From Balanoglossus misakiensis (taxonomy: Eukaryota; Animalia; Hemichordata), in contig CM082582.2 in the NCBI GenBank assembly GCA_040954595.2, positions 11,714,415-11,778,414 on the forward strand: 64,000 nt of DNA, read 5' to 3'. The notes beneath the pieces were generated by a model. The model was not told the DNA's origin. It made no database searches and saw only the letters and a program-made list of their open reading frames with translations. This document shows positions 274 through 36,800 of the stretch, in pieces (the stretch's first letter is position 1; each line of letters begins with the position of its first letter). A program made the position numbers and the translations under genes.

Positions 274-10085
<9,812 letters not shown>

Positions 10086-10723
10086 GTTTGAAAGAAAATA
10101 ATATGTTTAATATTTCTAGGTCAATCGTTCAATTGACCTGTCTGTCGAGTATATGATTGGCTTCAAAGCAAGTTGAAAGGTTATATTAAGGTCACTGATT
10201 GGCGGACCGTTCCAGCCTTTAAAAGTTATTAATCATTGTAGTTCAGGATTTCGGGAAATTATTCGAATCCAATTGAATTCATTTGCATTTTGAGGAAATT
10301 GTACTTATGGTCGCTTAGTATATTTTTGTGAAAAATGCCAAATACTTATGATATCCCGAATGACTAAGAATGAATAAACCAATAAGATAGCTCCACACAA
10401 ACGTGTCACAACAGGGAAAGCTGCATCTCATTTAAATATTTAATGCTGATAGCGGCGTCCCCGGCGAAACATGTTCGGGCAAGCACGGACATGCTGCTAT
10501 TTTTAGACAGTTGGTGGCTACGTCACTTAATCTATAGTATTATAATGAGGAAATTACAAATTCGGCCAATAAAAAGCTCGCGTTGCCGGCTCTGCGCTAC
10601 TGAATGCATAATAAGCAAAACAAGTTCATTCATGGTAATCGACATCGGAGCATGAATCGTAGAAATGTCCCGGCGTTTTTCTACAATGTTACGCCGGGAC
10701 CCTGTCGCAATATTTAGTAGAAC
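10086..10723. promoter_or_regulatory. Probable bidirectional promoter shared by GMDS and the SAM-protease gene
   Basis: Only 638 bp separate the two divergent ATGs. Inverted CCAAT boxes (ATTGG at 10156-10160 and 10198-10202), further CCAAT words near 10379 and 10566, an octamer ATTTGCAT at 10281-10288, and CpG retained relative to the GMDS gene body. Confidence 0.55.
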
Positions 10724-12899
10724 ATGGACGAAGACGTCGACGATAGCGCTATTGCCTGTTTTCTGGAGCCGTTGGATTTGATGCAATATGCAGACATTTT
10801 CCAAACCAAGGGTTACGATAAGGAGATCGATTTCTGCAACTTGACCGATCACGACCTGGATGATCTAGGCGTCGTTGACGACGATCACAGAGGGATGATC
10901 CTCGATGCAGGTGAGTCAGTCAACCTTGACATTATTTTTCGTTTTATTCTCTGATTTTTGATATTCTTGGGGATTTTTATGAGGTGCCAGTAGCTCGAAA
11001 TTAAGCTCACAACGGCGCGGCGTCGCGCCACTGTCAGCGACGCTGACGATAGTACGGGGAATCCCCAACGTGGAACAATGACTTTGCGTGCGCATATTAT
11101 GCCGGGACCTTCGTCCACGGTCAAGCCTGCTGTGTGATAATGCTAGGGTGTTGCTATACTTTTTTTTCATATTTTGGTTTTATAAGTGTTAATAAAGCTG
11201 CTGCAAACTTTTCAAATTCATGCTGTCTGCGTTAAAAATAAGTGGATACTTTAATTCACATTTCAAGGCAATTAGGCCTGATTTAATTGCCCGTTAAAAT
11301 TTCGAAAGAATAAATGTTTCGTTTTAATTTCCCATAATCACATGGGTAATCACCTGTTAAGAGTGGTTTCGGTGTTTACCAGCCCCTGTCCAGTGGCGGG
11401 TGGTCGTGTGGGTGGGTGCGACTGGGGGGTTCCCAGTTTATCTGAGCCACACGTCACCGCGCTAAGGTCAAGAAGTACCAGTCTAAGGTCAAGAAGTACC
11501 AGTCTGACGACATCTTTGTATTACAGTTCATGATTCACCCTTTTCCCCCATTCCCCCAAATTTTCTTTGTAAGAGAGTTTCAGAATCAGTCCCACCGAAA
11601 CTTTGGGGGAACCACAAATAATTATTTTCACTATCTGTTCCAATAATACTCAATGGCATCAACTATATTCTGAAATGTCCCCTTTCTTTTCATTAGTCAC
11701 TCGAAACCTATCGTATTTTGCGATAATTCATCTTAAGTACGTTTTTATTTGTGAGTCATGCTCGATTCTCTATTGTTTTCTTGAAGCTGAACACTACGAA
11801 GTATCCGACCAGTACAAACTTTACCAATTCTTAAAGGAATATGAATTAGAGTATTACTATAAGCACTTTATCAACTGTGATTACACCAGTATTGACTGCA
11901 TATCGCGAATGGACGTCGATGAAGAAAGCTTAGACGATCTGGAAATCACACTGCCCGGACACAAAAGACGACTGCAAGTGGCCGGTAAATATGAGTCTTT
12001 GTTTCCGATAGAGTTTCCGTTCCTATTGTGTCCTTTCATACAATTTTTTCATTGATATAAAATTGACGATATAGGCCTATGTCACGCTCAGACTTGTTCC
12101 GCCAGAGCTTTTGTGAACGGGTGTACGGTCGCCCGTATACTTCCGTTAGCGGGAACCGATTACGACACTGCGCGTGCGACCACTGTGCACTCTCACTGAT
12201 TTGTGTACAAATACAATCATCTATATAATTATCTATTATAATAGACAGGCAGCCTATCTGACATGAACGCCACGCTTCGGAAAGAAACAATGAAATTAAA
12301 TACATTTTCACACACGCCTGGCCATTTAAATTTCATTCTTTTATTGTCTACATCCCTCTTTTCGCAGTTGCAAGTCTCCGGAAGAGACGCCGGACGAGCG
12401 AGCTGGAACCGGAATCGCCAGTTGCCATTGGTTACTGGGGAAGGCCGTCAGCCCTGGTTGACGCAAAATATGACTTTCTTTGTTTACATTCGACGATAAA
12501 GTCCACCAAGCCGGACAAACCCACTTTTGAACTCGGTAAGACAATGTCAGATTTAGACTAGGACAATTTTATACGTGTAAGGAGTTGTATACAGCAATGG
12601 TTTACATGGAAACTTGTAATCTAAGTCTGGAAAATTTGATGTTAACACTTGTTTTTCTTTTCTTTTATCGAAATAGAATTTATGGTGGATTCCGGAAGTG
12701 ATGTAGTAACCGTTCGACAAAATATTTTGGACCAGTTAGATTTGGACCTGATTGGCACGATACAGAGCAGAGGTGTCCACGCTACCGTGGAAAAGCAGTT
12801 GTACAGGGCTGTGCTTGGAATTGGCAAGTTTAACGTTGAAATCGAGGTAAATGAACATGTAGTACAAAATGATGATGATGATGATGTTGATGATGATGT

Positions 12900-12976
<77 letters not shown>

Positions 12977-13358
12977 CCTAATTTGACTCTGTGTATTACA
13001 TTTCTTTCTCGTCCAGGTGATGTCGGAATCTTACAATTCCATCGGTAACCGAGTTCTGAGTCACTTCCGCCACTTCATCACCCCAAACCGCCACATCTGG
13101 CTTCAGCCCGAGGGCCACGACATCAGCGCGTCATCCCTCAGTTCCCTCGGCGAGTTGTCGCCCTCTGCGGCTGGTACGACAACCCCGGCAGCGGTGACGT
13201 CACCAGGAAGCCGCGAGGAAACCGAGCCACCAGCGGCGACCCAAAGCGAAATCGGCGAAACAGCCGTTGCGACCGAGGAAACAAGTGGGGCCGGGGAACA
13301 CGAGAAAAAGACAAGCACCCCGGTGACCAGCCAACGAAAGCACAAAGACACTGCTTGA
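10724..13358 (+). CDS. Uncharacterised protein: tandem SAM domains + retropepsin-like (clan AA) aspartyl protease + S/T/E-rich disordered tail, 354 aa
   Basis: Five phase-consistent GT-AG exons: 10724-10910, 11787-11984, 12368-12535, 12677-12846, 13017-13358 (1065 nt). An in-frame TAG lies two codons upstream of the ATG. SAM1: FLEPLDLMQYADIFQTKGYD...LTDHDLDDLGVVDDDHRGMIL. SAM2: FLKEYELEYYYKHFINCDY...LDDLEITLPGHKRRL. Protease: FMVDSGSDVVTV ... SIGNRVLSHF. Confidence 0.85.
11462..11505. repeat. 21-bp perfect tandem duplication (CTAAGGTCAAGAAGTACCAGT x2) in intron 1 of the SAM-protease gene
   Basis: Read directly from the sequence. Confidence 0.9.
12871..12975. repeat. (GAT)n trinucleotide repeat, 35 triplets with two GTT interruptions, intronic
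   Basis: Lies between the donor GTAAAT at 12847 and the acceptor CCAG ending at 13016. Confidence 0.96.
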
Positions 13359-17803: not shown

Positions 17804-20800
17804 TTAACGACCTCTTTGTCCGCGACCCCTTCGGTTGCGACGCCCGCCGCCTCGGCCTCTCGGAGTGCCACCAGGGCCTTCGTTAGCACTTCCGGTAGTT
17901 CTAGTACCGGAACCGGAACCGGAACCGCCACCTCTGTTACCACCTCCTCTGTTACCTCTGTTACCTCGACCAGCACCACCACGACCCCTTGACCCAGAAC
18001 CGCCGCCACCGCCTCCTCCACGGCCGCCACCATGCTGCCAGCCACCACGACCCCCACGACTGTTACCCCTGGTAGTAGTGGCACCTCCGTAAACTTCTCC
18101 GAATTCGGGCCGCTGCGAATATGTCCAGTGATCGCCAGCTGTTCCTGCAGCGCCACCGTACGCGTTGAAATTTGCAGGATTCGGTGCCACGTTTGGGGGA
18201 TATCCTTGTCGGTAACCCTAGTAAAAGAAACGTTGAATGATATAACTCGACCTGTTGCGGAAACACCTAATTCACATATATGGTTGTACAAAAAAATCAG
18301 TCCATAGCATTGAAAAAGATACCAATTTTTTCGTCATTTAAAAAAAATGTAGGTGTTTGTTCATAAATCTTCAGTATAGGCCTATTCGGAGACTTCCCCT
18401 ATTTTGTGAAATTACCTTAGTTCGTTTCTTGTTGCCTTGTGAGGAAGGTACTGGTTGTATACTTCCCTGTTGCCCAACCTGTAATTAGGAAGGAAAATAT
18501 CCAATTTGGTTTAACGTCTGCCGGAATTTCAATTTTTTATCACATGCACAGATCCACTTATTACCCGTGTATAGCATCGAATTGGTAATATGGGACAAAA
18601 CGTGTTGCTATGACCATGGCGTCACCAGTCGGTACTGCTTTCAACTTGTAAATAAACTTTTCGGTAGGCAAACTAGAATATAAGTTGTCAGTTTTCTCCG
18701 ATGGAAATATGGGCAAACCATTTACCTTGGTTTTCGTGTTGTACCCTCTGAAGGATAGTTGGTTCCAATCAGCATTATTTTGTTGTGGTAATGTCCTCTC
18801 AGCCTCCTAGTTAAAAAAATAATTAATTGACACAATTGAGAGTTTTGACCTCACAAAAAGGTTGCACTAAATGTTTGAACTAAAAGTGTGTGTTCAATTT
18901 AATTAAAACCAGTGTTTGATGATGGGTAACTTACCAATCTGATGTCCTCTGGAATTCTCCACACGAAGTCCCTCCTTTCAGTCTGCTCCACAATTGAGGG
19001 ACACTGGTCACACGTGGGTCCACGGTTGTGCTGTTCGTGGTTGGCAGTGCTCTGCCCACCCGTCTGCACCGTGTGGCAAAACACGTGACCGTTGGAACAA
19101 CTGTACCACTCGTCCTTTCCAAAGGTCCTAAAGTTGCCAATCGTAGCAGGATTGAGGTCGGGAGGGTTGGCCAGCTTGGAAACTATGTTCGGGTACAGAT
19201 GCTTGAAGGTCGATAGAGTATTTGACAGTGTCTGAAGGGAAGGGGTTTCTGTCAAAACACCGAGTGCCAATTCGTGAACACTTCGCACTCGGCGCCCTTC
19301 CTTAGACATCTGGGAGAAGGAATGACATTCCTGCAGCCGATATATCACAACCAGAGCGCAACTTTGGAGCATAATACTGCGATGTCTCTCCTTTTCTTCG
19401 CCGTGGAGAGAGTCATATTGACAGGTTGCCACTTCGACCATTCTCTCTTCATTTAGGATTTGTAACGACCTTGCCTTCTCAGCTGTCACCTCTGAAATCT
19501 CGTAGTCAAGCGAGGGTTTTGTGTGAGTATTGCCACAGGACTCGAGTGTGGAAATGACCCTTTCTGTCCACACTTTTGCAGATAAAAGCTGTCCATAGCT
19601 TCTAATGTTATTCTCAATCGGCACCAGTTCATGTAAGGACGATGCCGACCGAATCGCCTCTTCAAACAGGTGTTGATGATGAAAAGGCACCGTCGTTAAA
19701 ACGAGCTTCTTAAGATGTTCTCTGGAGGAGCTTTCAAATGCAAACTTCTCGGGAACAATATTCATATGCTCAATTGTAGCGAGTACATATTTGGTTACTG
19801 TGTTGTAACGATTACAACCAGTTATAGTCGTGTAGCAACTGGGGCATGCTTTCATAACAAGTGGTCGGGCACTAGTTGTTGATGTGATTCCATGCATCCA
19901 TCGATCCAGGTCACGAACTTCAAATACATCACCGCATGCAAGTTGAATAAAGCTACTTTGGGCGGAGTATTTTCTACCAAAGAAAGCAGCAGATGCTTCT
20001 AGTTTCCGTCGGTCACAAGCTCTGCACAGCCGTGGACACATTTCTCCACATAAACCAACGCAGTTGTGACCACACTTTAGCTTCAGCGGACATGGGTAGT
20101 TGCAAGGTGGTCTTTCACAAGGCTCCCAACATTTCCTTGTGCACTGATGGTGTACGCATCGCCACGTACACTGCATGTTGCATCTTCTTCCCTGTGTCCT
20201 GTGTCCACAAGGATACGGGTGTTTTATCGTGCAGATACTGCAGGTTTCGTAACACTTGTTCAGGCATGGATGGCCACATAGAAGTATGCGATCACACTTT
20301 TCATTGCATAGATTGTGGCGGCCATTGCAAGTGCCGCATGTACCACTGCATCTGTGTCCACATTGGAGAACAGCACCACACTTGTTAGGACAGAACAACA
20401 TATTTTCACAGCATCTCATGCCAAGGACATGGCCGCAATCCTTATACGTTCTTCGAACAGTGGCCAAGCAGATGTCACTACATTCTTCACAACACAGCTT
20501 TGTGCATTTATGTCCACAATGTAGTGGTCTGTTGCATTGTAGCTTGCAGTCTGCGTGCGTTCCAGTCTTCAAGCAAACACCACATTTACCAGCGCATGTG
20601 TGTCCGCACTCCAATTTTATACCACAGACCTGTTCACAGCTCTCTGCAGTGAGGAAACAGTGACCTTTCACCTTGTGACCACATGGCCAATCCTCGTGAA
20701 GGACCATTACTTTGCACTGTTGCTCACACCGATCACCACATTTATTTGGACAAACATGATTACACCCAAGCCGTTTCTCACATGGACGTTTGCACACGAA

Positions 20801-23800
20801 TCTTGACTCGTCTTCTGAGCATCTCATGGTTTGACTATGACCACATTTTGACAAGGTCCTTTCCACGGTTACTTCGCATTTTGGAGGACATTGGTCTGAA
20901 CACCTCTTCGTACAGCTGTGACCGCATTCAAACTGTTTCCTGCATTCATCTTGGCACTGGAAAGTTGAAGGATCTTCGTGGCATTGCATCTTTTGTTCAT
21001 GGTAGCATACGGGAATCCGTTTATACACAGGCACTGTGCATTTGGGGCAACTCTCATGACAGCGCTTTGGACAAGGGTGATTCCTTTCGCACATCTTCGG
21101 GCATGGCATCTTGCAAAGAAAATGACTGGGCTCTTTGTAACATGACATCTTTTGTACATGACCACAAGACGGTATTTCCTTTTCAACTTTAACTCTGCAT
21201 TTCTTGCAATCTTCATGACACTTCAGTGGACACTGGTGACCCTTTTCACACTTCTCTTCGCATGGAGCTTGGCAATCATAGTAGCGAGGGTCCCGATGAC
21301 ATGGTACCATCTGTAAATGACCACATGAGGGCATTTCTTTCTCCACCTTCACACTGCATAAGCGACATCCCATATAACATTTCAGCGGGCAAGGATGACC
21401 TTCCTCACAGGACTCTGGGCACGGTTCTTGACAATTAAAACTTTCAGGCTTTTGAAAACATGGCACCATTTGCATATGCCCACAGTCTGGTATAATCTTC
21501 TCAATTTTTACCTCGCAGGGCTCACATCCTAAATAACATTGTAATGGGCATCTGTGTCCTCGTTCACACGAATATTCACATGGTTCAGGACAAGGGAACT
21601 TTTCGGGGTTTTCATAGCAGTACATTTGTTGGGTGTGACCACATCTTTCAATTGTTTTGGTCACTCTTACGAGGCACTTTTTGCAGTCTTTGTAACATAC
21701 CAGCTTACAGGAATGTCCACCACTACACACTCGCACACATGGCTTCATACATTGGTATTCTTCATGGTTCGAGTCAAATGGGTGACAGAAAAGTCTACAG
21801 ACATGACCGCATTCGAGCCTTGTATCACATCGAAGAGTACATCCCCCTTCTGGCGAAGCTTTGAAATCTTCTGCCCGTGAACAGCTCAGAATTGTATCCG
21901 GGTGATTTCTGCAAAACACCTTCAGTGACTTTCCCATTTTTCCACCTGACTTCAAATCTGCTGTTATATTCTTCCACAGTTGGCTTTTCATGCCAAGTAG
22001 TTTGAAGTTCCCTATGCAGAAGAATCCCACCTTGGCCCTGCTCAGAGCTACACAGACACGATTCTCAATGCTCAGGAATCCTATCTTCCCATCTTGGTTG
22101 CTTCTAACAAGTGACAGCAGAATGATATCATTCTCTTCGCCTTGAAAATTGTCGACTGGAGAGATGCGAACACCTTCAAAGACAGACCTTGGCATCATGT
22201 TTTTCAGCTGGATCACTTGAGCTGTATACATAGTAAGAATTGTAATTTGGTCAGGTCTGTAGCCTTGCTTCAGGAGGTACTGGCACAAAGCAACAAGGAA
22301 TGAAGCTTCATGTGCATTAGATCTGCTTCTGATATCATCCATGAATGTTTCCTGTTCTTCGTGGTTCACAAAGAAAATGTTGCTGCTTACTCCCATTACG
22401 TCATCATACTTCTCAACAGATGGGTGGTTGTGCAGCTCTTTGTAAATGTGTTTCATCAATTCGGCTATCTCAGGCCTCATTCTGTGTTGAATGTTAAGCG
22501 TGTCATACTGCAGGTTGTTTTCAATCATCCGCTCAAAGAGTGACATGCTCAGGTTGTAGTCCCTGGCCAATTTATACACTGTAGGGTTTGGGCGAAGCTG
22601 CTGGTGATCACCAATCAATATGAGGTGCTGACATTCGGATGTTAGCGTCGTTATGATGTGTGCCTCCAGGACCTCTGCAGCTTCCTCAACCACTATGATA
22701 CGAGGGCGCAATTCGTGTAGAAGTGAGCCATATTTTGCAGCCCCTGTTGTTGTCATCCCGATGACCTTTGCCTCCCTAAGAACCTCCAAGTCTTCAGTCC
22801 CACGAGCTTCCTTTAGTCGCCGTGCATCTCTGTCATATTCTTCTATAGTTGTCAAAAGTGCTTCAGTGTTCCTTTTGTGCAACTCGTAGTGCCAGTGCCG
22901 ATACAGCTTCCACCGATCTTGTAGATTTAGCGCCCATACGTCTGTTATGGCAGACGCTTCTTCCGTTGTCATGGAAGCTGTGTCTGCAAGTAGATCATGT
23001 AAGAGCTGCTCCTGAAACTTTATCTGTTCACTTGTGTTGGCCCTTCTAAGACGGTTGTCAGCTTTAACTCGCTTACTTTGCTCAGTACGGACTTCTTGCA
23101 ACAGATTGTTCAGGTGATCATACTGTTTGGTGTATACAATATGCTGAGCTCTTGTATCGGTTTCATCATCATCCAGCATTCTGGACTTGTTGAGATAGTC
23201 TGCCTCCCCTTCAACCTCAATGGTATTTTCTGCCTGTTCAGGTGATTCATTTTCTAGAGCACTATTCTCGTTAGCGGCATCTTCAAACAAGCCTGTCTTG
23301 TTTTCATGGCAAATTCTTGCCACATCTTCTCTATAGGTATTTTTGATTTGCCTTTCAGGTAACTTCAGCTCAGCGATTTTTGCAACCAACCACTTGTTGA
23401 CAGCTTCAAAAATATTTCGCCCAGTAACCATTTTGTTTTCGTTCAGACTCTTGGTATGGTCTTCAGTCATTGACTGTTCGATACGATTGCCATCAGTTGA
23501 TCTTGTTTCACCAAATCTCTTTGTAATATTATCCTCTTTGGATTTCAGATCGCCGCGGATGCCTCTGCTGTGCCGTCTATCTTCCAATTTCCTCCGCAAT
23601 CTGGAGAGCTGAAACTCCTCCAAGATTTCACTCTTACTTCTATTTCCAATTCGTACAATGCCAGAATGAAGAAATTTCAAGATTCCTTCCAGAAACTGGT
23701 CAAGAGCATGGTTTGTGTAGCAGACGACCAAAATGGGTGAACAATCACCATTACCATTATGATATCTTTCAGTCGGGTCACCACGACACTTATCACACCA

Positions 23801-25702
23801 GATTTGATGATTGTGGAGCAGCATTTTCATAATCTTTAAACCAACATGTGTTTTTCCTGTGCCAGGAGGACCTTGGATGATTGCAAACTCACTTGTAAGT
23901 GAAGTCTTGAGTGCTTTCAGCTGAGATTCATTGAGGTGCAATTGTTCAGCCGAGGGCCAATCATCTGCATCAAGGATATCTACTGGAAACCTTGCAATTT
24001 CCAGTCTTTGTAGATGTAGGGGTCTATACACTCTCCGATGAATTGGACGTTCTGGTGTCTCTTCCATCTTCCACTTTTCATTCAAGAGAGGCTCAAAATC
24101 ATAACGTGGAGAGTGATCTTCTTGTGCATATAAGTAGCTTGGTTTATCAACAGTGTCTTCGCAGTACACAATGTGTTTTGTGAATGGTAGGCTGTCTTCC
24201 TCAAGTTCCTGCAACCCCGCAAGAACATACCTGTTTGCCACGAAGTAAGCTGTTGTCTCAACCATGATAAAATCATCCTCTGGCGCTACCTTAAGAGTGT
24301 CTTCGATGCAGGAGAACTTCAATGTCACTCTGAACATTTGGAGTTGATCGATGTCCCGGTTAGCAATCGTTGCAAACATCACTGTTTGGAAGTTATCCTT
24401 TGTGAGGCACACTAGGCCACCGTATATCAAGCGTTTTGTGTGCTTCCATTGAACATGTTTCAACTGCTTCCGGTCTAGGCTGACCTCGTGACATATGCCC
24501 TCATTTTCAACGCACTCTGGTTTGAGAATATGTACATTGTAATACACACGGACATCACTTAGTCGCTGTTGTTGTGACCGAGGCAATCCCATGTTTCTGA
24601 GGATTTCTCCGATACCTTCCCTCAAAGGTGCCATGAAATCTTCTCTAAGAAGTCGAAACTGCACATCAAGATAGTCATCAACATCTTCAAACGAACCCTT
24701 TGGGAGGTTTGCTCTTATGAAGGGCTTCCTGTCTGTGACAACATCGCCAAATCTTGGGTAAACGGGAATGTCTCGAAAACTTTCAGAAGGCCTGTTTTTT
24801 GCCTTGGTCAGGAGCTGATTTTCACCCTTGTCCTGTTGTATTCTTCCTTCACGAACATCTTTCAAAAATCCATCCCTGTCTTCCTCCAAGGTACGGACAT
24901 CCTTGACAATGTCTCCATCAATGTCTACCTGCGTTTCACTCAGCGTATTGATTATGTCTATTGCTAGACTTAGAATTGGTGACACCTCCAAAAATTTGCT
25001 GGGCATTTTCTGGAGAAGTGTCCTCAGTATGGTCACCACCTGTCGTAACTCTGTTTCACACCTGCTATCAAATCTACCAAGTGATATAGACACCATCATT
25101 GAGCTTAGATGTTTTGGTACAAGACACGTGAAGAATTTGCACTCACTCACTGAAATAAGCAAGTGGATGACACTCTGCGGGGCAGTCGTACAAGAGATGG
25201 CTCGGCTTATGACGCGTAGAATGAGAAGAAAGTTATTAGCTGGAGCTCCTTTTTCCTCACCAATGAGATTTGTAAATCCATTCACATCCTTAGAGAGTTC
25301 CATCACAATCTCCCTTGGGTCAGACTCGTACAACCGGCTCAGTTCTTTGAAGTCTAGTTTTTTCTGCCCCCTTCTTGGATTGCGATGTTGCTGCGGATTG
25401 TGTGTTCTGCTATTACCTCTATACTGCATCCCCCTGGTTCTATTGGCATTCTTCTCTGGGGCTGTGTCCTGGGTCTTTGTTGCATTTGTATGGTCTGTTG
25501 CACACAACGCTCTGTGTGAGTTTACAGTTGGAGCACTGAGGAGAACTGGAGCGTACGTCACGTACTGCACATGCGCTGATGCCCCGTATAAGCCACGCCC
25601 TGAGTGAGCAAAGTGAGCAGCATTTGCATATCTGGGATGTTGCTGAAACGGTTGCTGGGTGTTATGCCTTCCGCGCCCTCTTTGTCTACCACGTTCCGCC
25701 AT
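17804..25702 (-). CDS. ZNFX1: NFX1-type zinc finger-containing protein 1 family (UPF1-like SF1 RNA helicase), about 2441 aa when spliced
   Basis: A giant coding exon at 18935-25702 plus phase-0 exons 18726-18806, 18416-18478 and 17804-18217. Motifs: YLDVQFRLLREDF, KRLIYGGLVCL, Walker A GPPGTGKT, CYTNHALDQFLE, VEEAAEVLEAH, LIGDHQQLRP, QHRM, VDNFQGEENDIILLSLVRS, RVCVALSRAK, then a long CGH-rich NF-X1 finger array, a RING-like segment and an RZ-like remnant. A likely 5' UTR acceptor lies at 25871-25872. May be a paralogue rather than the one-to-one orthologue. Confidence 0.95.
20639..21751 (-). repeat. Seven tandem 52-54-aa (about 159-nt) Cys/His-rich Zn-finger units inside ZNFX1
   Basis: Units align by eye, e.g. 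CQEPCPESCEEGHPCPLKCYMGCRLCSVKVEKEMPSCGHLQMVPCHRDPRYYD and CQAPCEEKCEKGHQCPLKCHEDCKKCRVKVEKEIPSCGHVQKMSCYKEPSHFL. Confidence 0.9.
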
Positions 25703-26236
25703 ATTTTATAGTGACCTTGAGAAAATGACCTCTCAAATTAGTACGCAAATTTGATCTTCTCTAAGATGTCCTCTTCTTCTAATTATCAATGTCTTAGTCC
25801 CCGCTGGTCATCAATAGGATTCTTGCACAGGGGCTTGGAAGCGGAACATGATAACATAACACAAGACTCTCTGAAGAAATTCAAACAGAATGGTTTAAAC
25901 ATGAAGACATTATTGAAATAAACACAATGCATACACAACGCGAGGACAGATAAAAGTACATGTTACAACGTAAGTGTCCATACATGGTAATAGTTCAGAC
26001 ATGTTAATAATAGCTTATGAACCTTGTAAGATTAGCAATGAAAATGCATCAGTTAAGGGTTACAGGGATATGTAATTAAGAATTTCAAGGAATCGCGAAG
26101 CGCAATACTTTGTATCCGTCTCAGGTAATATCTAATTCTGCAGAAATCGTGAGCTTGGCACAAAACTCGTCTGGGAGATATCGCGGATTAGGTTTCCAAA
26201 GGTCGTTAATATGCCTTTGTTCCGTTTACATACAGG

Positions 26237-27785: not shown

Positions 27786-30700
27786 TTACTGCTTGTAGTC
27801 CGTGATACATACTTGTAGTAACATTTGGCAGAACCTTGTGAAGGAACCTATGAACGAATAGACGACAATATCAGTTAGATAATGAGCAGTTGCTGTATGA
27901 TCATAAACACAATGGTATATAAGAGTGTATTGCCGTCATTGAACGTGAGCTTGAACCGCACGCCAGACTCTCTACATCTGCAATGACATGATTACGACTT
28001 GTCTAATTCATCACAGCTAGTAATACATGTATCAGGTTTGTCTCACAGAGACCGAGCATCCGACGATATGAATTTCATTCTTTTTACCTATTTGCCGCAT
28101 CATCGGTTTTGGTTTATTCCTCTTGAAGAAAACGCCGGCGAAATAAACCGGTAGTCCAGAAAGCGTCACCAGAAGTCCAACCAGTGAAACCATCGGATTT
28201 GCATAGAAAGGTACAACCACAAGGAACAGCGCAAGTAAAGCAAACAGTATCGGGATTGGTAAAGGCAGCTGGAAAGGAAATATCAAATTAAAGCGTTCCA
28301 TTATATTGGTTGCCACATTTAACATTTTAAGAAGAATTAGTTATACTATGATACTCATCATAACATAATTTGAATGCGACAACACACCTTGACTGGTCTT
28401 TCGAGTTCAGGCCTTCTGAAACGCAGCCATAGTAGTCCACTGACGGAAGTTAGTATTCCCAACCATTCGATGAAACTGAAGTAACTTATAAGGGTATTGA
28501 TGTCACTAACTTGAATCATTATCAGACTCAAAGTACCCTGGGAAATAAACAAAGAGACAAATAAGGGGGGTGGATAAACGAAATGTCATTGTCATGGTAA
28601 TTTTCCATCACGTATATGACTGTTAAACTTGATGCCATTTTAAAAGTGGTTTCCTTCAATTTAAATTGATTTTGCTTACATTCACCAGCAAAGCCGGAAT
28701 TGGTGTACATTTGTTGACGTGGATCATTGCCATCACGTCAGGAAGATGGCCTTCTCTTGCGGCAGAAAAATAAACCCTGTGGTAATTAAAGGTAAGAAAA
28801 AAGATGGTTCAAATTATCATTGAAGCGAGTACACTAATCGTTTAGAGACCTTGTCATGAATTAGACGTGCAGCCACCTTACGTTTATCTCATCACATCAG
28901 TCAGCTCGAGGAATCGTTTTATGTTTTAAGGGAATTACCATTTTAAGATGCCTGCCTACCTTCCAGCGGTGAAGACGGATGCGTTTGTTGCACCAAGTGT
29001 CGACAAAGCCACGAAGACTGGCATTATCCATGCCATGACACCAAGCGTTTTATCTGCGAATGTCTGCAGGAAAAACGTAAAAAGAACGGGTGCACTGTTC
29101 AAGAATTTGGTCAAGCAAGTTAAACATTTATTCAAACCATATTATGGTGGTGACTTTAGTCCAATACTATGGAAGATAAGGAAGATAGAAAGTCTTCTCT
29201 GAATAATTAAACGATCATAAACTTACCACAGCCACTGCGTCACTTTGAAGAAGCTCTTGAGGACTGAGCACCGCAAAATATGATGAAATCACCAAAAGGT
29301 AGATACCGGTTATTAAAGTGACAGCTGTGATTAAAGCAATCGGCAAAGTTCTGTAAGAAAAAGAAGAAACAATTTACAGAACATTTGGATTGGACGTAAT
29401 GTTTGTACACACGAAATTACGCACATGCCCTTATGACGATCGTAAATTCTTGGTATCGGTAAACATTACAGCAAGCTGCAATGGACCAGAATATCAGTCC
29501 ACATATAAGGTTTGTCGGTGTGTGAAGCATATGGTCGGCAAAGACAAGAACTTTGGGTGCGGAATCTTTACTCTATGGTGGTATTCTACGATAAAGAACC
29601 CATCTTACCTTTTGACGTTCTTTATTTCTTCTGTCACGCCGTTTAAATTATTCCTACAGAGAAAATGCGGACAGTGTCAAAGTCAAGTTCATTATAGAGA
29701 AACACTCAGGGTATATCTGTAAGAGATGGTTAGGTGAATTAACATAACTGTCATAATACATGTTGTACATTGTGAAGTATGACTGTTCATGTACATGTAC
29801 CGCACATGTACATTGATTGTCAAATATTTGAACTCTATATGTGGTGTGAAAACAAGGGCGATTGTGTTTGGGAAAAAAAAGGGGGGGGGGTAATATACTC
29901 ACCATCCTGAATAAGCCCACAAGCCCGAGTACATAGCCAGAGATATATCACCAATGGAGTTCGTACTGTTGTCGAAAGCATTCTGAAAACTTTCAGTGTG
30001 TCCTAATATGCAAAACGGGGGTGAATAAGTTAGCAGATTTAACGAATCAATGGCTCAGTGGTTTTGGCTGTAATCCAGAGAGGTCAACACACATAAGAAA
30101 TCCGAACAAACTCATCAGAGGAGACTTACCTGAGCAGAGGTAATATATTCCAGTACCAATTATGATTGCAGTTGCGATCAGTTTCGAATAGGAAAGAATA
30201 TCAGTAAACCGGGCACTCCATTTTGCATTCAAGCAATTCAGGAAGGTGAGAAATACTGCAACAGATAGATAAAGATGAATGAATGATGAGCAGAAGCAAT
30301 GAAGCTGACGATTATGAACGCTGCAACTACATAGGGTGTGCTGTGGTTATAACTTTCGGTCGACAAGTCGCTTTATAAAATTGTGTGTTCCTATAGTGGA
30401 GAAAGGTCGGGGGGTCAGAAGGACGAAGTCGGTCAGTGGAGTGAGATGGACTCTGGTCGACCTTGTCAGTCGACCAGTCCAGTTTAATGTCAATAAAGTT
30501 TTGAAGTTCAGTCTGCACCCTTACTAAACCCCCGTTAAACTTTCACGCCCAAAACTCACTTATTCCCACTACAGCGATGAGGCGTTTGGTGAGCTCAGGA
30601 CTATAATTGCACTCCGAAACTACCGGGTAAACAATATAGTCGGCACACGCTAACATGATGATTGCTTGGCTCGTCGGCTTCTGGATGACCATCACAATCC

Positions 30701-31010
30701 ACAAATATAGAAACGACGGTATTGGTCCAAATGCCTCATTAATATAGATGTAGTCACCCCCGAATTTTCTAATGGAAGTTCCCAGCTCCATCATACACAG
30801 TGCTCCCAGCATGGAAAGTATTCCGCAGACGAGCCAGATTATCAACGACAATCCGACAGAACCAGAGTACAACAGCACTCCCTTCGGCGAGATAAATATA
30901 CCAGATCCAATTATCGTGCCAATGATGAGAAGAGTACCGTCGACGACAGTCAGTTGCCGTTTAATGTGAAATCCTTCGCCGGGTTTATCGTGCTTAACTT
31001 TCGATGCCAT
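27786..31010 (-). CDS. SLC7 L-type amino acid transporter light chain (LAT / y+LAT / b0,+AT / xCT subfamily), 479 aa
   Basis: Ten phase-consistent exons: 30560-31010, 30130-30255, 29903-30002, 29609-29653, 29227-29350, 28960-29063, 28680-28776, 28388-28537, 28088-28268, 27786-27847 (1440 nt). Motifs: [70 protein letters not shown]. The extracellular Cys after TM3 (VSECN) expected for the heavy-chain disulfide is present. Confidence 0.95.
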
Positions 31011-33810
31011 GGTCTTATAGGTGTCGTTCAGAATGTAGGGGAGTTGTTCGCTGTGTCGCGACTTTAGTCTGCACTAGGGGAGTGTAGTTAAAACAACGCA
31101 ACCAGAAAGCGATCAACAATTTTTCTGTTGATAATCAGAGGCTTGAGATAAGAGAACAATGACACAACTCGCGCTTTTATGACGGGTGCAATTTACGCCC
31201 ATGCTGTTGTAAAACGTTTATCAGTTGTAATTTTGAGACGTGGCCAAGTATGTGCGAGTAGTATGCAATGGTTACTGTGCGAAGAAACATAATTCAATAC
31301 CTGAATTGGCCGCTTGTCGATCCGACGTTTGACAAGAGCAAGTCACAACCCTTGCAGCAAAAATATCCCAAGGCCCGGAGTCAATTGCCAAGAGTGTTCA
31401 GAACGGCAAAGGGACGAGAGCATGCACAGACACAGGACACCAGGAAGGCTGATATTCTGACTGACCAGATTGAATTAAATTCAATCCTGTATATAGTAAC
31501 ACACAGGTGTAGTACCATTACCAGGTGTAATGGTATGACTATGTAAATATATTAGCATATGCATACAGTGTACAATACAAATGAGTTCCATGACTGTTAT
31601 AAATTTATACAGGTCACTACGCCTTACCCATTTAGGTGATAAATCATTGATATGATTTATTTCCACGGTGTGGTGTTTGAATTGTTCTGTAAGTGGTGAA
31701 CACCCGTCTAGAATGATGTCAGATTTCGATTTCTTTAAGTAAACACCGATTTTAATACAATCACACGAATTCGCTCAATCAAGATAAGGTATAAAAGAGG
31801 ACGGGAGTTTGAACACTTCTAATAGACTATAACCTGTGTTATTATCGTAGGCCGAATACGAATGTTGCAGCAAAGACATTCTGATCATATTTAAAAATCA
31901 CCTCAATTAAAATTAACATTTAATCAATCAAGCAAATAAGTATAACGCAAACAGGAAATCTGGTTGCGGGCAAATGTCATATAGATCAAAGAGTAACGTA
32001 AATGAATATTCAAATTGTTGGCGGACAGAAATTACAGGGGGACAGACAAAATGCTGATGCATGAAAAATATTGACCCTCTTTGCGCAAAAAAGGCGACAC
32101 TCCACCCAAATCAATGACAAAAAAGCTTGCACGGAAATCGCGACCCCCCCCCCCCCGCCCATATAAAAACAACACACAGGCGGCGCTTCCCCGCAAATTC
32201 TGTCCTGTCCTATTATTGCCCTTTTTATAACACTACTCCCTAAAATAAACCCGCGTTCGATGTGGCAAACAAAATGACGCACGGAGTTTGTATGGCTGTA
32301 CATGTACAAAGGTGCCCGTAGTTTAGTGTGCACCCAACATATTCTATTCACATTCAAATACGCATTTTTCTGGTACATATGTGCCGTGGCAATCGAGGTG
32401 AGTATGACCATGTGATACAGGTGTACATGTATCTAATTTGTATAATGAGCTGAGGCGGAGCGAGTAATATTGTTTTAGTTTTATATATTTTATCCTCTCT
32501 CAATCCTCCCCAGTGAACTTCGTCTCGTTTTGTACAATTCACCGCTCATACCGTCAAAGTTATCTACAGTGACACTTCTGTTTTCTGGAAGAAATATGAG
32601 GAATAATAATGTGTTTTCACGATACATTTAAAGCTGGTAAAATGACCTATATTCACAGGTAAACGACACCTTTAATTCATGTGAATTGCAAATTGGTTTC
32701 GGGTTATTTTAGGCCGCAAACTAACAAGGATTGTGTGACGCATGTAAAAGCTGCCTCTGTGGAATGTTTACTTTTAATTTTTCAAATTTAGGATGGCGGG
32801 TTAAAGAATTAAAAAAAACATTGTTTGGTCATGACAATCTTTGGTTTGTTTCCATAGTAATGTTTAAAACTAGGAGGTAAAGAGTAGCTCTTTAAAATAT
32901 TGTAGAAGTGATTCATTTCGTAATAGTTGAACTGATTATATTATGGGTTTGTTTACTGAGCATTGATAGTTTTGCGCTTTATCTTGACAACAAACGCACA
33001 AGTAAATACTTGGTCCACTCACACGCATTGTTTGCATGCCGAAAAATGCGATTGTGCGTCCAAACAATCATATCGTGACGCCTCAGAGGTAGGTTGTGCA
33101 ACGGAAGTGTTAGATTGGCGGCAATTCTGTAAGCTCACGATGTTGGTGTCGCTTGGGCAAAAGTAGTTGGAGCCAGTGGTATCGAACGGTAAGTGAAATA
33201 TGAGTGAAAGCCAGGAGAGTGTGTTGTGTTAGTGATCACCAGTCACGAAAGGGCGATTGAAATAATGCAAACGTGGCCTGTCGGACCTAAACGTCTTGGT
33301 TTACTAATCAGAGTAAGTGTTGATCAACAGGTGTCTAGCTATATTCGAGCCGCACACACTGCCCACATCCAGGTTACATCACTGACGTTTTTTTTTATCG
33401 ATCTCACATCAATTACAAATTTGAGTCTCAGGCGCATTATTCCTCAGCTCGCTGGAAGGGAGCAAAGCTGGGGTATAGGTTAAGTGCGCTTACCAAGTGG
33501 GCGTTCGTTTGAATGAAAAAATATTCAAACTGTTTGAAATACATATCGATGCGACCTGTAATCTTAAAATTACTGTGCCTCTCACATTGTGTGAACTTTG
33601 AACTCTGTCACGTCCTGACTACATGTTGTGAAGACAACCACACATCGTTACGTACCAGTGTTAGTCTGCCCCCCCCCCCCCATAAATGTGGTTACGAAAT
33701 GTCTGTACGGTGTATATGACGGTTAGAAGTTTTCTCCCCAAATTCGTGATTCGTTTGGTCTTTGACTCCACAGGAAAGTACAGCACGTTTGAAAATACTA
33801 ACGAGAAACA

Positions 33811-36800
33811 ATGTCGTCAGAAACCACACCGTTTGGAGTGGTGGACTACGTGGTGTTTTCAGCGATGCTGGGTGTGTCACTTTTGACTGGCATCTATCAT
33901 GGAATCAAAAGTGGGCAGAGAACGAGCACTTCGGAGTAAGTTTCACTTTGAGTCTTAAGATTATTGCCAGCCAAGTAATCGAAATCAAGCTCTGTATGAA
34001 ACTAGAAAATGTGCCTGCTACACGAGAATGTTCATCCACAAACAACACAGCCACGCGAGATTCTCGCAGGGACTCGAGGAGTTCGGATAATAGTCCATTC
34101 GCCATTGTTATTGATTCTGTACATAGTGTTTCTGGTGGGAAAGATGATGATGGCATACGTCTTTGATACAGTGGGTTTCTGTGTCATGTTAAGTTTACTC
34201 TCTACGGCCACGATCTTTGACAGATCTCTCAGTTGTTTTCTTTCTTTCTTTCTCTCCTCAAAGGTTCTTGGTGGCCGACAAGTCGATGAGCGGACTGCCA
34301 ATCGCAATGTCATTGTTGGTCTCTTTCTTGTCCGCCTTGACTATTCTAGGAATGCCGGCAGAAATTTACATCTATGGAGCCACGTATTCTTTTCTGGTGC
34401 TGTGTTACATTTGGTTACTACCAGTTCTGACATTTCTGTACGTCCCTGTCTTTCATGGTCTCAATTTGATTAGTGCTTATGAGGTAAGTACTGGCAACAT
34501 TGGACAAGAGCACGACCCAATGAATATATATTACAGCCCAAAACTTTTATATTTCAAATTATTGTCTGTAGGCCTATACGGAATTTACTGGTCTGGTCTA
34601 TCAACAAGGAGGACCCCCTCCTCCAAATGCTTATTTTATGCCTCAAAATAAAAACAATCACACATACATTTGCAGTACTTTGGACTGAGGTTTAACTACG
34701 CGGTCCGGATCACAGCGGCTCTACTGTTTGGCTTGCAGACGATCTTTTACATAGCGGTAACGATGATTGGTCCGGCAATGGCCGTGGACGCAGGTGAGGG
34801 ACCCAGTAGGCCATTTTAATGACCTCTACATGACCTTACATCCTCGTACTTCTGTGTTGGTATGAATCCATCTGTCGTGTAAAACCTACAAAAACTGTCG
34901 TGTACTGTGAATTTACATTTTTCTACTTGCCAACGTTTTCATTTTACGAAAACTGAAAGTCTATTTATTCTTAATTTGACAGTTATGGAGATAGATTTGT
35001 GGATTACCTTGTTGGCTACTGGTTCAGTTTGCATATTCTACACTACACTGGTGAGTTTTCAGCAGCACGCCCACAATTGATCGATTGGTGAAAAGAAATA
35101 TAAACTCAAAACATACCATAGAGATTTTCCAGTGAAATCTCTGTGAAACCAATGGCGAAAACAAGATACAGCAGTCACTTCACTGTGAAGTGTATGCTAA
35201 TAAATTTATCCTCAAACATGCATAGGGCGGAATGAAAGCTGTCATATGGACAGATGTCTTCCAATTTCTGGTTATTGTCGGTACTGTCGTTACTGTAATC
35301 GTCCTGGGGACCATGGAAGCGGGCGGTCTGGACTACGTCTGGGAAACCAACAAACAGGATGGCCGACTGGACATATTCAAGTAAGTGTTTCTATAGGAAC
35401 CGATGTATATCTCCTTGATATGTGAAGTTTTAAAGACGGATATGACTGTTGAATATGAATGACATTATGTCAAGGAAATTTTGTACAGTCTTGTTTGGCC
35501 CATTTCTCAAGAGTTAGTTTTAGAGTTTTAATCATTTCCGTTTTCCACGATTTATTCTAGGGTGCCGTTCGATTTGACAGAAAGAACAACAATGATAAGT
35601 ATGATAATCGGAGGAGGAATGAACACATTTGCTCTGTACATCAGTCAAACTGCCGTGCAAAGATATGTGTCGTCCAAAAATCTGAAACAGGCACAAATGT
35701 AAGAATTACAATATAGTATTATTCAGATTTTCATGATTCCTTATATAATTATTTGCAAATGAACCAATCTTTGACCTAACATTTAAACACGAATGAACCA
35801 AGTTTGCCACTCTTAACAACGCAGATCTGTCATGCTGAATATGCCCTTTCAATTCGTCATTCTACCAATGGTTTTCTTCACGGGATTGGTGATGTATGCT
35901 TACTATGACGGTGAGTTTCTCTCAGGCTAAACAAACCACATAGTTCAGAGTTTAAAATGCTAAAGTGCGCATGTCATCACAAACAACAACAAACCATGTC
36001 TGCACACCGTGACGATCCTTTCATAACGGACCTCGTCATAATTCTTTTGAAAACTTTATCAACGACTTCTCAAAATATGCTTTCCTATATCCTTATCCTG
36101 TATAGATTCCCTGATGCCTTTGCAACCAGCAATTAACGCAACATTCGCACCGGGTAAGTCCGCCACCTTTTGTCACATGCTAGAGGCCACGACACACTGG
36201 CCTGTCATTTTGCATTTTGCATTTTGCTCTTTTTCTGAGTGTAATTTGGTTGGCGTATCGATTTATGAATGAATAATGCTGTGTTACATCTGCTATCTTC
36301 TGTCACGTCACAGGGTTTCCAACTAGTGGTGGCGCTGATCCGAATTACGCGCCAGACTATACTTCATCAGACCAAGTACGTATATGCGCTTCAGAATTAT
36401 AAAGTGTGTTCTCGTGACAACTTCCACAAACATATGTTCGTGTCATAGACCCTAAAGCAACATGTCTAAGTGTAATTATTAATATCAACTCTCTATTCCA
36501 GATATTGGTGTATTTCGTAAGTTCACTTTTTGGATCCATACCGGGCATACAAGGCCTCTTTGTTGCTGCACTCTTTGCGGGAACTCTCAGGTATTCAAGA
36601 CTGTGTGTCTGTCTGTCTGTTTCTCTCTTTCTCCCTCTCTCTATAACATACATGTACACAATTTCGATACAAGTCTCACAGTTTTGACTTTCTTTTTTCA
36701 ACTTTCTTGTCTTTTGATGAATTGATCAGTTCAATGTCATCCGGATTAAACGCTATGATCGCTGTGACTTTGGAAGATCTAGTGAAACCATGGCGACGCT

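Follow-up and report, generated by a model that had tools for sequence, protein, structure and literature searches.

A five-exon gene and its neighbours

In a stretch of 64,000 nucleotides from the hemichordate Balanoglossus misakiensis (contig CM082582.2, positions 11,714,415 to 11,778,414; hereafter the window), one copy of a gene was found on the plus strand that encodes two sterile alpha motif (SAM) domains, a clan AA aspartyl protease domain and a tail, in this order. The gene, called the SAM-protease gene in this work, belongs to an ancient animal family within a known clan of proteases, in which the pairing of domains is new; the family is real and apparently undescribed. Joining of the five exons yielded 1065 nt coding for 354 aa, uninterrupted and ended by one terminal stop. 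All four introns are of the GT-AG type, and their acceptors are preceded by pyrimidine-rich tracts. The spliced protein is colinear with its orthologues from Ptychodera flava (P0003, isoform X1; 74% identity over 340 aa) and Glandiceps talaboti (P0004; 76% identity over 280 aa). Splice signals and colinear orthologues support the exon junctions and the gene model as a whole, in agreement with a prediction made earlier from the window sequence (the original prediction), which had described five cleanly splicing exons.

Exon borders were set by splice sites, and domains were assigned exon by exon using Pfam. Exon 1 (10724..10910; aa 1-62) encodes SAM1, with an acidic mid-loop surface by charge count (SAM_2, E 2.2e-6), and exon 2 (11787..11984; aa 63-128) encodes SAM2, with the basic end-helix LPGHKRRL (SAM_1, E 4.6e-8); as predicted, each of the two holds one SAM match above the Pfam cut-off. 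Exon 3 (12368..12535; aa 129-184), whose structural elements were assigned with the help of an AlphaFold2 (AF2) model of an orthologue, covers the end of the long SAM2 helix, a basic cluster (LRKRRR, 12376..12393) which resembles a nuclear localisation signal and may function as one, and the N-terminal strands of the protease. The protease core lies in exon 4 (12677..12846; aa 185-241), which contains D-S-G-S and the flap-like S-R-G-V-H with invariant columns and scored 22.4 bits against Asp_protease_2 (E 2e-4), just under the Pfam cut-off of 24.3. The codon of the predicted catalytic residue Asp189 (12688..12690) was assigned from the translation, from conservation in the family and from an Asp-Asp contact in a dimer model. 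Exon 5 (13017..13358; aa 242-354) supplies the SIGNRVL motif, the C-terminal strands from which the dimer sheet is predicted to be built in AF2 models of the orthologue, a variable tail of low confidence and the stop codon. Two of the four introns fall inside the protease domain. The motifs LRKRRR, FMVDSGSDVV, IQSRGVHATV and SIGNRVL quoted in the original prediction were all recovered in the spliced translation.

The domain order given there, SAM-SAM-(LRKRRR)-protease-tail, applies to the window protein as a whole, whereas two of its elements fall outside the ancestral core. In a set of 53 full-length members (43 in a bilaterian group and 10 others, unnamed rows having been grouped by similarity), the basic cluster pattern was present in 27 of the 43 bilaterian-group proteins and, by eye, in none of the 10 others. 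Tails measure 29-436 aa in the bilaterian group versus 4-18 aa in cnidarian and sponge members, in which SAM pair and protease make up the whole protein. Judged from this comparison, basic cluster and long tail are later additions.

With 168 nt and phase 1 at both ends, exon 3 is symmetric. It is missing in four database models from different animals (P0002, P0006, P0077, P0103), in which SAM2 is joined directly to the catalytic exon; P0057, a newer Saccoglossus model, is likewise without most of this stretch. Without exon 3, these models lose the basic cluster as well as those N-terminal strands of the protease which contact the partner in the dimer model; they could represent either a decoy isoform or an error that recurs in gene models. 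Most of intron 4 is occupied by a (GAT)n microsatellite (12869-12976) in frame with exon 4. Read-through of this intron would append a poly-Asp run and then a stop ahead of the dimer strands.

The downstream neighbour of the SAM-protease gene, at a distance of about 5.5 kb and in tail-to-tail orientation, encodes a ZNFX1-like helicase (18902-25705, minus strand) in a single open frame of 2,268 codons with matches to Pfam ZNFX1, AAA_11 and AAA_12. At L004, the one long locus carrying a family member, only the SAM-protease gene is common with the window and the ZNFX1-like gene is not near the orthologue; hence the ZNFX1 neighbour is no evidence for an immune role. Upstream, a divergent gene has its first exon at about 9980-10086 (minus strand), and its start is ~640 bp from the SAM-protease ATG, so that the two genes possibly share a bidirectional promoter. 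An 11-residue motif in the divergent exon recalls what we take to be GDP-mannose 4,6-dehydratase, an assignment not confirmed by a PDB search. Exon(s) of an amino-acid permease (30546-31073, minus strand) and of a sodium:solute symporter (34193-34648, plus strand) were located further downstream.

The SAM pair and the protease domain

By sequence, the SAM pair was closest to the tandems of Caskin1/2 and AIDA-1 and to Eph SAMs (Caskin1 tandem, E 3e-13; AIDA-1, E 2.5e-11); the SARM1 tandem was far weaker (E 0.005). The 50 VIA rows listed for the full model did not include SARM1. As in Caskin/ANKS1-type proteins, the two SAM domains are adjacent, and they are related to the Caskin/AIDA-1 tandems. 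In 53/53 full-length members, the net charge was negative in the SAM1 mid-loop and positive in the SAM2 end-helix, as counted in windows hand-set from model helices in family SAMs only. On average the SAM1 end-helix is neutral; an acidic SAM2 mid-loop is seen mostly in bilaterians. The link between the two domains is short and of fixed length in 43/43 bilaterian-group proteins, which would favour pairing between molecules. According to a multi-SAM review (PMC10252437), SAM domains commonly bind each other through mid-loop and end-helix. The tandems of Caskin and SARM1 oligomerise, those of Caskin head-to-tail (section 3.2.2).

Conservation of the protease was assessed in 213 fetched proteins, a redundant set with many fragments from which ANKS1A rows and a false positive (P0079; see below) were left out. 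The active-site column is covered by 166 domains and contains Asp in 165 of them, followed by Ser (139) or Thr (26; together 165/166), Gly (154/166) and a fourth residue Ser (165/166), counts that are biased since the first search was seeded on the catalytic exon of the window. DSGS was found in 46/46 aligned members from the full-length search. The FMVDSGS sequence agrees with the hydrophobic-hydrophobic-D-T/S-G motif of clan AA single-lobe peptidases, and the expected conservation of DSG in orthologues was borne out. The flap residues S, G and H and the Gly of the second motif are invariant in 40/40 aligned members. Mean column identity is higher in the protease core (0.72) than in the SAM domains (0.56 and 0.59) and in the tail (0.29).

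An AF2 model of the orthologue P0003 had a predicted local distance difference test (pLDDT) value of 83 and a predicted template modelling (pTM) score of 0.51 for the whole protein, and a pLDDT of 92 for the protease domain alone. The closest solved folds are retropepsins, with Rickettsia APRc at the top (Z 11.0, root-mean-square deviation [rmsd] 2.8, 109 aligned), the equine infectious anaemia virus (EIAV) enzyme tied with it (Z 10.2, rmsd 2.7, 99 aligned), and foamy virus (9.1) and Ddi1 (8.5) following; Foldseek searches gave the same fold. As anticipated in the original prediction, the domain is thus modelled as a retropepsin fold with a flap and a downstream hydrophobic-Gly-helix.

Two protease domains modelled without SAMs formed a symmetric homodimer with a score of 0.78 (best of three controls, 0.00), and runs agreed in at least 95% of the contacts with a pLDDT of at least 88. 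The mark used for calling a dimer was reached by 21/30 microbial and 17/29 eukaryotic solved homodimers and by none of the single chains (0/23 and 0/30). The closest contacts are Ser46-Ser46, Asp45-Asp45 and strands 115-120 (domain numbering), the last within a sheet of C-terminal strands. The enzyme is therefore predicted, on the model, to be a homodimer with one Asp per chain and a fireman's grip, which is the paired-Asp arrangement the original prediction had expected. In PMC7072860, a Ser in the fireman's grip and interfaces made of C-terminal strands only are associated with weaker dimers. Since both features are present here, there is room for a dimerisation aid. No signal peptide was evident at the N-terminus; on sequence grounds, the protein would act inside the cell, and probably in the nucleus in many bilaterians.

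How SAM pair and protease may act together

The model that we prefer, with a probability of about 0.45 overall, is that SAM assembly gates protease activity. The SAM pair would assemble head-to-tail between molecules via the acidic SAM1 mid-loop and the basic SAM2 end-helix, a step that taken by itself appears somewhat more likely than not. Assembly would concentrate weakly pairing protease lobes, and the concentrated lobes would form active homodimers, so that assembly would be the on switch. In its favour are the complementary charges of the two SAM faces, the short link of fixed length, the Ser grip and the C-terminal-only sheet, which suggest a weak dimer, and the reduction of cnidarian and sponge members to little more than SAM pair and protease.

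Several points weigh against it. The protease dimer was modelled without SAM domains, which are dispensable in the model; the dimer score may have passed through likeness to solved retropepsin dimers; and the predicted interface also takes in N-terminal residues 8 and 16-22, contacts which may make the protease dimer stable alone. The full-length pTM of 0.51 for the orthologue leaves the placement of SAMs relative to protease unsure. No sensor or autoinhibitory domain like the ARM of SARM1 was found in the 354-aa protein or in the Pfam columns of the family, and a SAM-less D-T-L-S relative (P0205) exists. As to the SAM pair, the modelled tandem deviates from Caskin tandems by an rmsd of 9.9-11.8 Å, without superposition, and Foldseek, queried with the full model, placed the heterotypic complexes EphA2/SHIP2, EphA6/Caskin1 and EphA6/Odin in its first five rows. 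The charge windows were set by hand, and an acidic mid-loop and a basic end-helix are common among SAM domains generally.

Nearly as likely as this SAM-switch model is that the protease is a constitutive, DDI1-like dimer and the SAM pair a targeting module, which docks on SAM proteins of the Eph, SHIP2 or ANKS1 type or brings substrate. The confident dimer model without SAMs and the heterotypic Foldseek rows would be in line with this possibility, as would the SAM2 end-helix, whose Eph-like PGH-K/R-R sequence presumably resembles that of EphA2. However, complementary acidic and basic faces occur within the same chain in all 53 members, which suits self-assembly, and the Ser-type grip and the C-terminal-only sheet point to a weaker dimer.

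That the retropepsin domain has no or very weak catalytic activity and serves as a scaffold for dimerisation and peptide binding appears improbable. Some family features would fit a scaffold: the second-motif Gly is followed by Ser or Asn in 96/112 domains, at a position occupied by Arg in retroviral enzymes, and the active-site variants D-S-A-S, D-T-A-S and D-T-L-S exist. The fourth residue of D-S-G-S is Ser instead of the Ala in the retroviral consensus D-T/S-G-A, as given in PMC7072860. Against a scaffold speak the near-complete retention of the active-site Asp from sponge to amphioxus and the invariant flap and second-motif residues described above. We regard the domain as probably catalytically active.

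Distribution, ancestry and significance of the family

A full-length profile was built from 14 members and used to score 7,990 candidates. It matched 51 proteins, namely 43 family members and eight fish ANKS1A proteins; the latter were excluded as their similarity extends through the SAMs only. Named members come from hemichordates, all five echinoderm classes, Branchiostoma, a chiton, bivalves, gastropods, octopus, an annelid, Lingula and two nemerteans. Their records are named 'uncharacterized', 'hypothetical' or 'SAM domain-containing', or bear the look-alike labels ANP32E-like and ANKS1A-like, which reflect SAM or acidic-tail likeness. In the precomputed Pfam column, 40 of the 43 list SAM families only, three list none and none lists a protease family; the family was overlooked because its protease scores under Pfam cut-offs.

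A protease-only profile searched against 1.84 billion representatives gave 176 matches at E ≤ 0.001, 150 of them listed. By BLAST, 148 of the 150 are family members or single-exon fragments. P0079 was dropped as a summed-repeat false positive (an insect allergen repeat protein), and P0190 (E 3e-5), a JGI record of 122 aa labelled 'predicted aspartyl protease', is a stand-alone protein. No DDI1-, NRIP3- or ASPRV1-like protein was among the 150 matches listed. Divergent members with the SAM-SAM-protease architecture were found in Nematostella, Exaiptasia, Actinia, Desmophyllum, Pocillopora, Stylophora, Acropora and the sponge Oscarella. In P0101, a record from a sponge transcriptome marked 'complete', SAMs and protease share one open reading frame (ORF), as they do in relatives on Logan contigs of 1.2-2.9 kb, which by their length look like spliced transcripts. 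The metazoa-wide search proposed with the original prediction therefore recovered the architecture from sponge and cnidarians to molluscs, echinoderms, hemichordates and amphioxus, and the family is at least as old as the sponge-eumetazoan split. None of the members found in these searches, which are incomplete and left many matches unnamed, was assigned by name to a vertebrate, a tunicate, an arthropod, a nematode or an organism outside the animals; loss in the vertebrate, tunicate, arthropod and nematode lineages is only a suggestion.

A long-branch, SAM-less relative (P0205, P0129, P0147, P0182, P0204) has D-T-L-S at its active site and Pro where the second motif otherwise has Gly, and is possibly an inactive stand-alone offshoot. 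Cnidarian members form at least two clades with different flaps (P0078/P0085 versus P0086/P0095/P0099/P0206-P0208). One clade keeps G-V-H together with D-S-A-S and the flaps of the other are of the Pro-Gly-Gly type, a hint that these may be paralogues acting on different substrates.

Introns were compared in ten metagenome loci carrying family members. The intron just before the catalytic F-M-V-D matched that of the window in position and phase in 9/10 loci (L001 is continuous), the intron after the last core strand was shared in 7/9 loci reaching that point, and the donor after SAM2 in 3/3 loci where the motif pattern was detected. Profile matches to genomic fragments, coral fragments included, stop at the same break, with 75 ends at positions 98-102. 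L001, which is continuous from SAM2 to the end, and L002 are without one or both protease-domain introns, owing to intron loss in some lineage or to a transcript-derived contig. A protease-domain tree of 61 selected rows, built without DDI1 or long terminal repeat (LTR)-element rows, supported molluscs (97/90), hemichordates (99/95; the window protein inside) and nested bivalve, gastropod and coral groups; it misplaced amphioxus among echinoderms, split the cnidarians and left deep nodes unsupported. It could not place P0190 (branch length 6.18). The features of an LTR retroelement or retroviral pol (gag-pol with reverse transcriptase [RT] and integrase, LTRs, intronless) were not seen in this four-intron gene. 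LTR-like repeats were absent between 5 and 19 kb of the window, and a crude six-frame scan of the window detected neither an RT or Gag zinc-knuckle motif nor a second clan AA motif besides the single one present. Because introns are conserved and the tree largely tracks host phylogeny, the SAM-protease gene is, on this comparative evidence, an old host gene and not a transposon relic, as originally proposed. A retroelement relic or recent exon capture without stable host role, for which one could cite weak foamy-virus likeness (Pfam Spuma_A9PTase in 9/18 members, best E 0.0013; PDB 2jys, E 0.02) and the near tie of retroviral proteases with APRc in the fold search, is highly improbable in view of the shared intron before F-M-V-D, the recovered mollusc and hemichordate groups and the lack of element remains just described. 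The recent-relic version is largely refuted; a very old retroelement origin of the protease domain is possible.

Pfam searches with 18 members matched Asp_protease_2 in 18/18, gag-asp_proteas in 17/18 and Spuma_A9PTase in 9/18 (best E 2e-5 to 1e-3). TIGR03698 matched four of the 18, with a best E of 1.7e-5 far under its curated cut-off of 57.35 bits, and five of 19 additional members at 16-21 bits; the stand-alone ORFs and above-cut-off scores of that family were not found. The nearest predicted structures in the ESM Atlas, which covers only large clusters and in which the taxa of matches are no sign of transfer, were small bacterial clan AA proteins (9/10 rows, one unrecorded; TM 0.73-0.81 by query), and for the Nematostella member 10/10 were bacterial. 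P0190 aligned to the family with an hhalign probability of 97% over 103 columns. The prokaryote-like character noted by eye in the original prediction holds as a resemblance, stand-alone clan AA proteins being closer than LTR-element Pfam families; the foamy-virus likeness is a counter-signal. No close prokaryotic or viral relative was found in GTDB contigs, viral contigs, PHROGs, PADLOC, plasmids or phages by pattern searches that are insensitive at ~30% identity. One chance-level PHROGs row and one plasmid Ku match at E 0.7 were rejected as relatives. Prokaryotic origin thus appears unproven, the searched sets having revealed no donor lineage.

Compared with known systems, the family shares its nearest predicted structures with prokaryotic stand-alone clan AA proteins (TIGR03698/COG5550 type, Asp_protease_2; Rickettsia APRc), and differs in being spliced and SAM-fused and in having no close prokaryotic or phage sequence in the searches. 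With Caskin1/2 and ANKS1 (AIDA-1, Odin), which are scaffolds that carry ankyrin, SH3 or PTB domains and no enzyme, it shares tandem SAMs and the best sequence matches, but the modelled tandem geometry is ~10-12 Å rmsd away. SARM1 (ARM-SAM-SAM-TIR) likewise has a tandem SAM directly upstream of an enzyme domain needing self-association; its ARM sensor and TIR NADase are both absent here, where the effector is a protease and the SAM likeness is weak. Of the SARM1 analogy drawn originally, the tandem SAM before an effector domain stands, while the SAMs are Caskin/ANKS1/Eph-like and come without an ARM-like sensor; SARM1 is an analogy, not a homologue. Like DDI1/2, NIX-1 (NRIP3) and SASPase (ASPRV1), the SAM-protease has one retropepsin lobe in a host gene, a Ser-type motif and a predicted C-terminal-strand dimer sheet. 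DDI1/2 carry ubiquitin-like/UBA domains instead of a tandem SAM (Pfam found SAM, SAM and Asp protease only), the DDI1 Pfam family (which we take to be PF09668) was not among the seven families matched by the 18 members, and the Ddi1 structure is less similar to the domain than APRc (Z 8.5 versus 11.0). The foamy-virus protease (MEROPS A9), whose lobe is reported to be monomeric and to need help to dimerise, has a D-S-G motif and a weak profile match in common with the family. It is a viral polyprotein domain with a helical C-terminal interface according to PMC7072860, unlike the C-terminal strands predicted here.

Targeted full-text literature searches, with most subscription journals, supplements, MEROPS and InterPro outside their scope, yielded no description of a SAM-SAM-protease architecture. 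The word 'protease' does not occur in PMC10252437, nor 'sterile' in PMC2642776, in which the non-viral single-domain clan AA families of eukaryotes are given as DDI, NIX-1 and SASPase. The family may have been mentioned before in some table or database. Within this scope, and with named records uncharacterised or look-alike-labelled, the architecture appears not to be among characterised animal proteins, as the original prediction had supposed.

Animals are credited with very few host single-lobe clan AA proteases (DDI, NIX-1 and SASPase in PMC2642776), and the SAM-protease adds another family, which occurs in tractable animals such as Nematostella, sea urchin, amphioxus and oyster. If SAM assembly gates the enzyme, the family would represent a new design of intracellular signalling protease and offer a clean test of polymer-driven protease activation. 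A wider scenario, which we consider unlikely as a whole, is that early in animal evolution a clan AA protease of prokaryotic descent became joined to a SAM pair able to polymerise. The resulting assembly-activated signalling protease would have been kept from sponges to amphioxus and would have disappeared from vertebrates and ecdysozoans; a decoy isoform made by skipping of exon 3 may tune it. If this were true, the fusion protease would correspond, among aspartyl enzymes, to SARM1 and to the initiator caspases on filaments of death domains.

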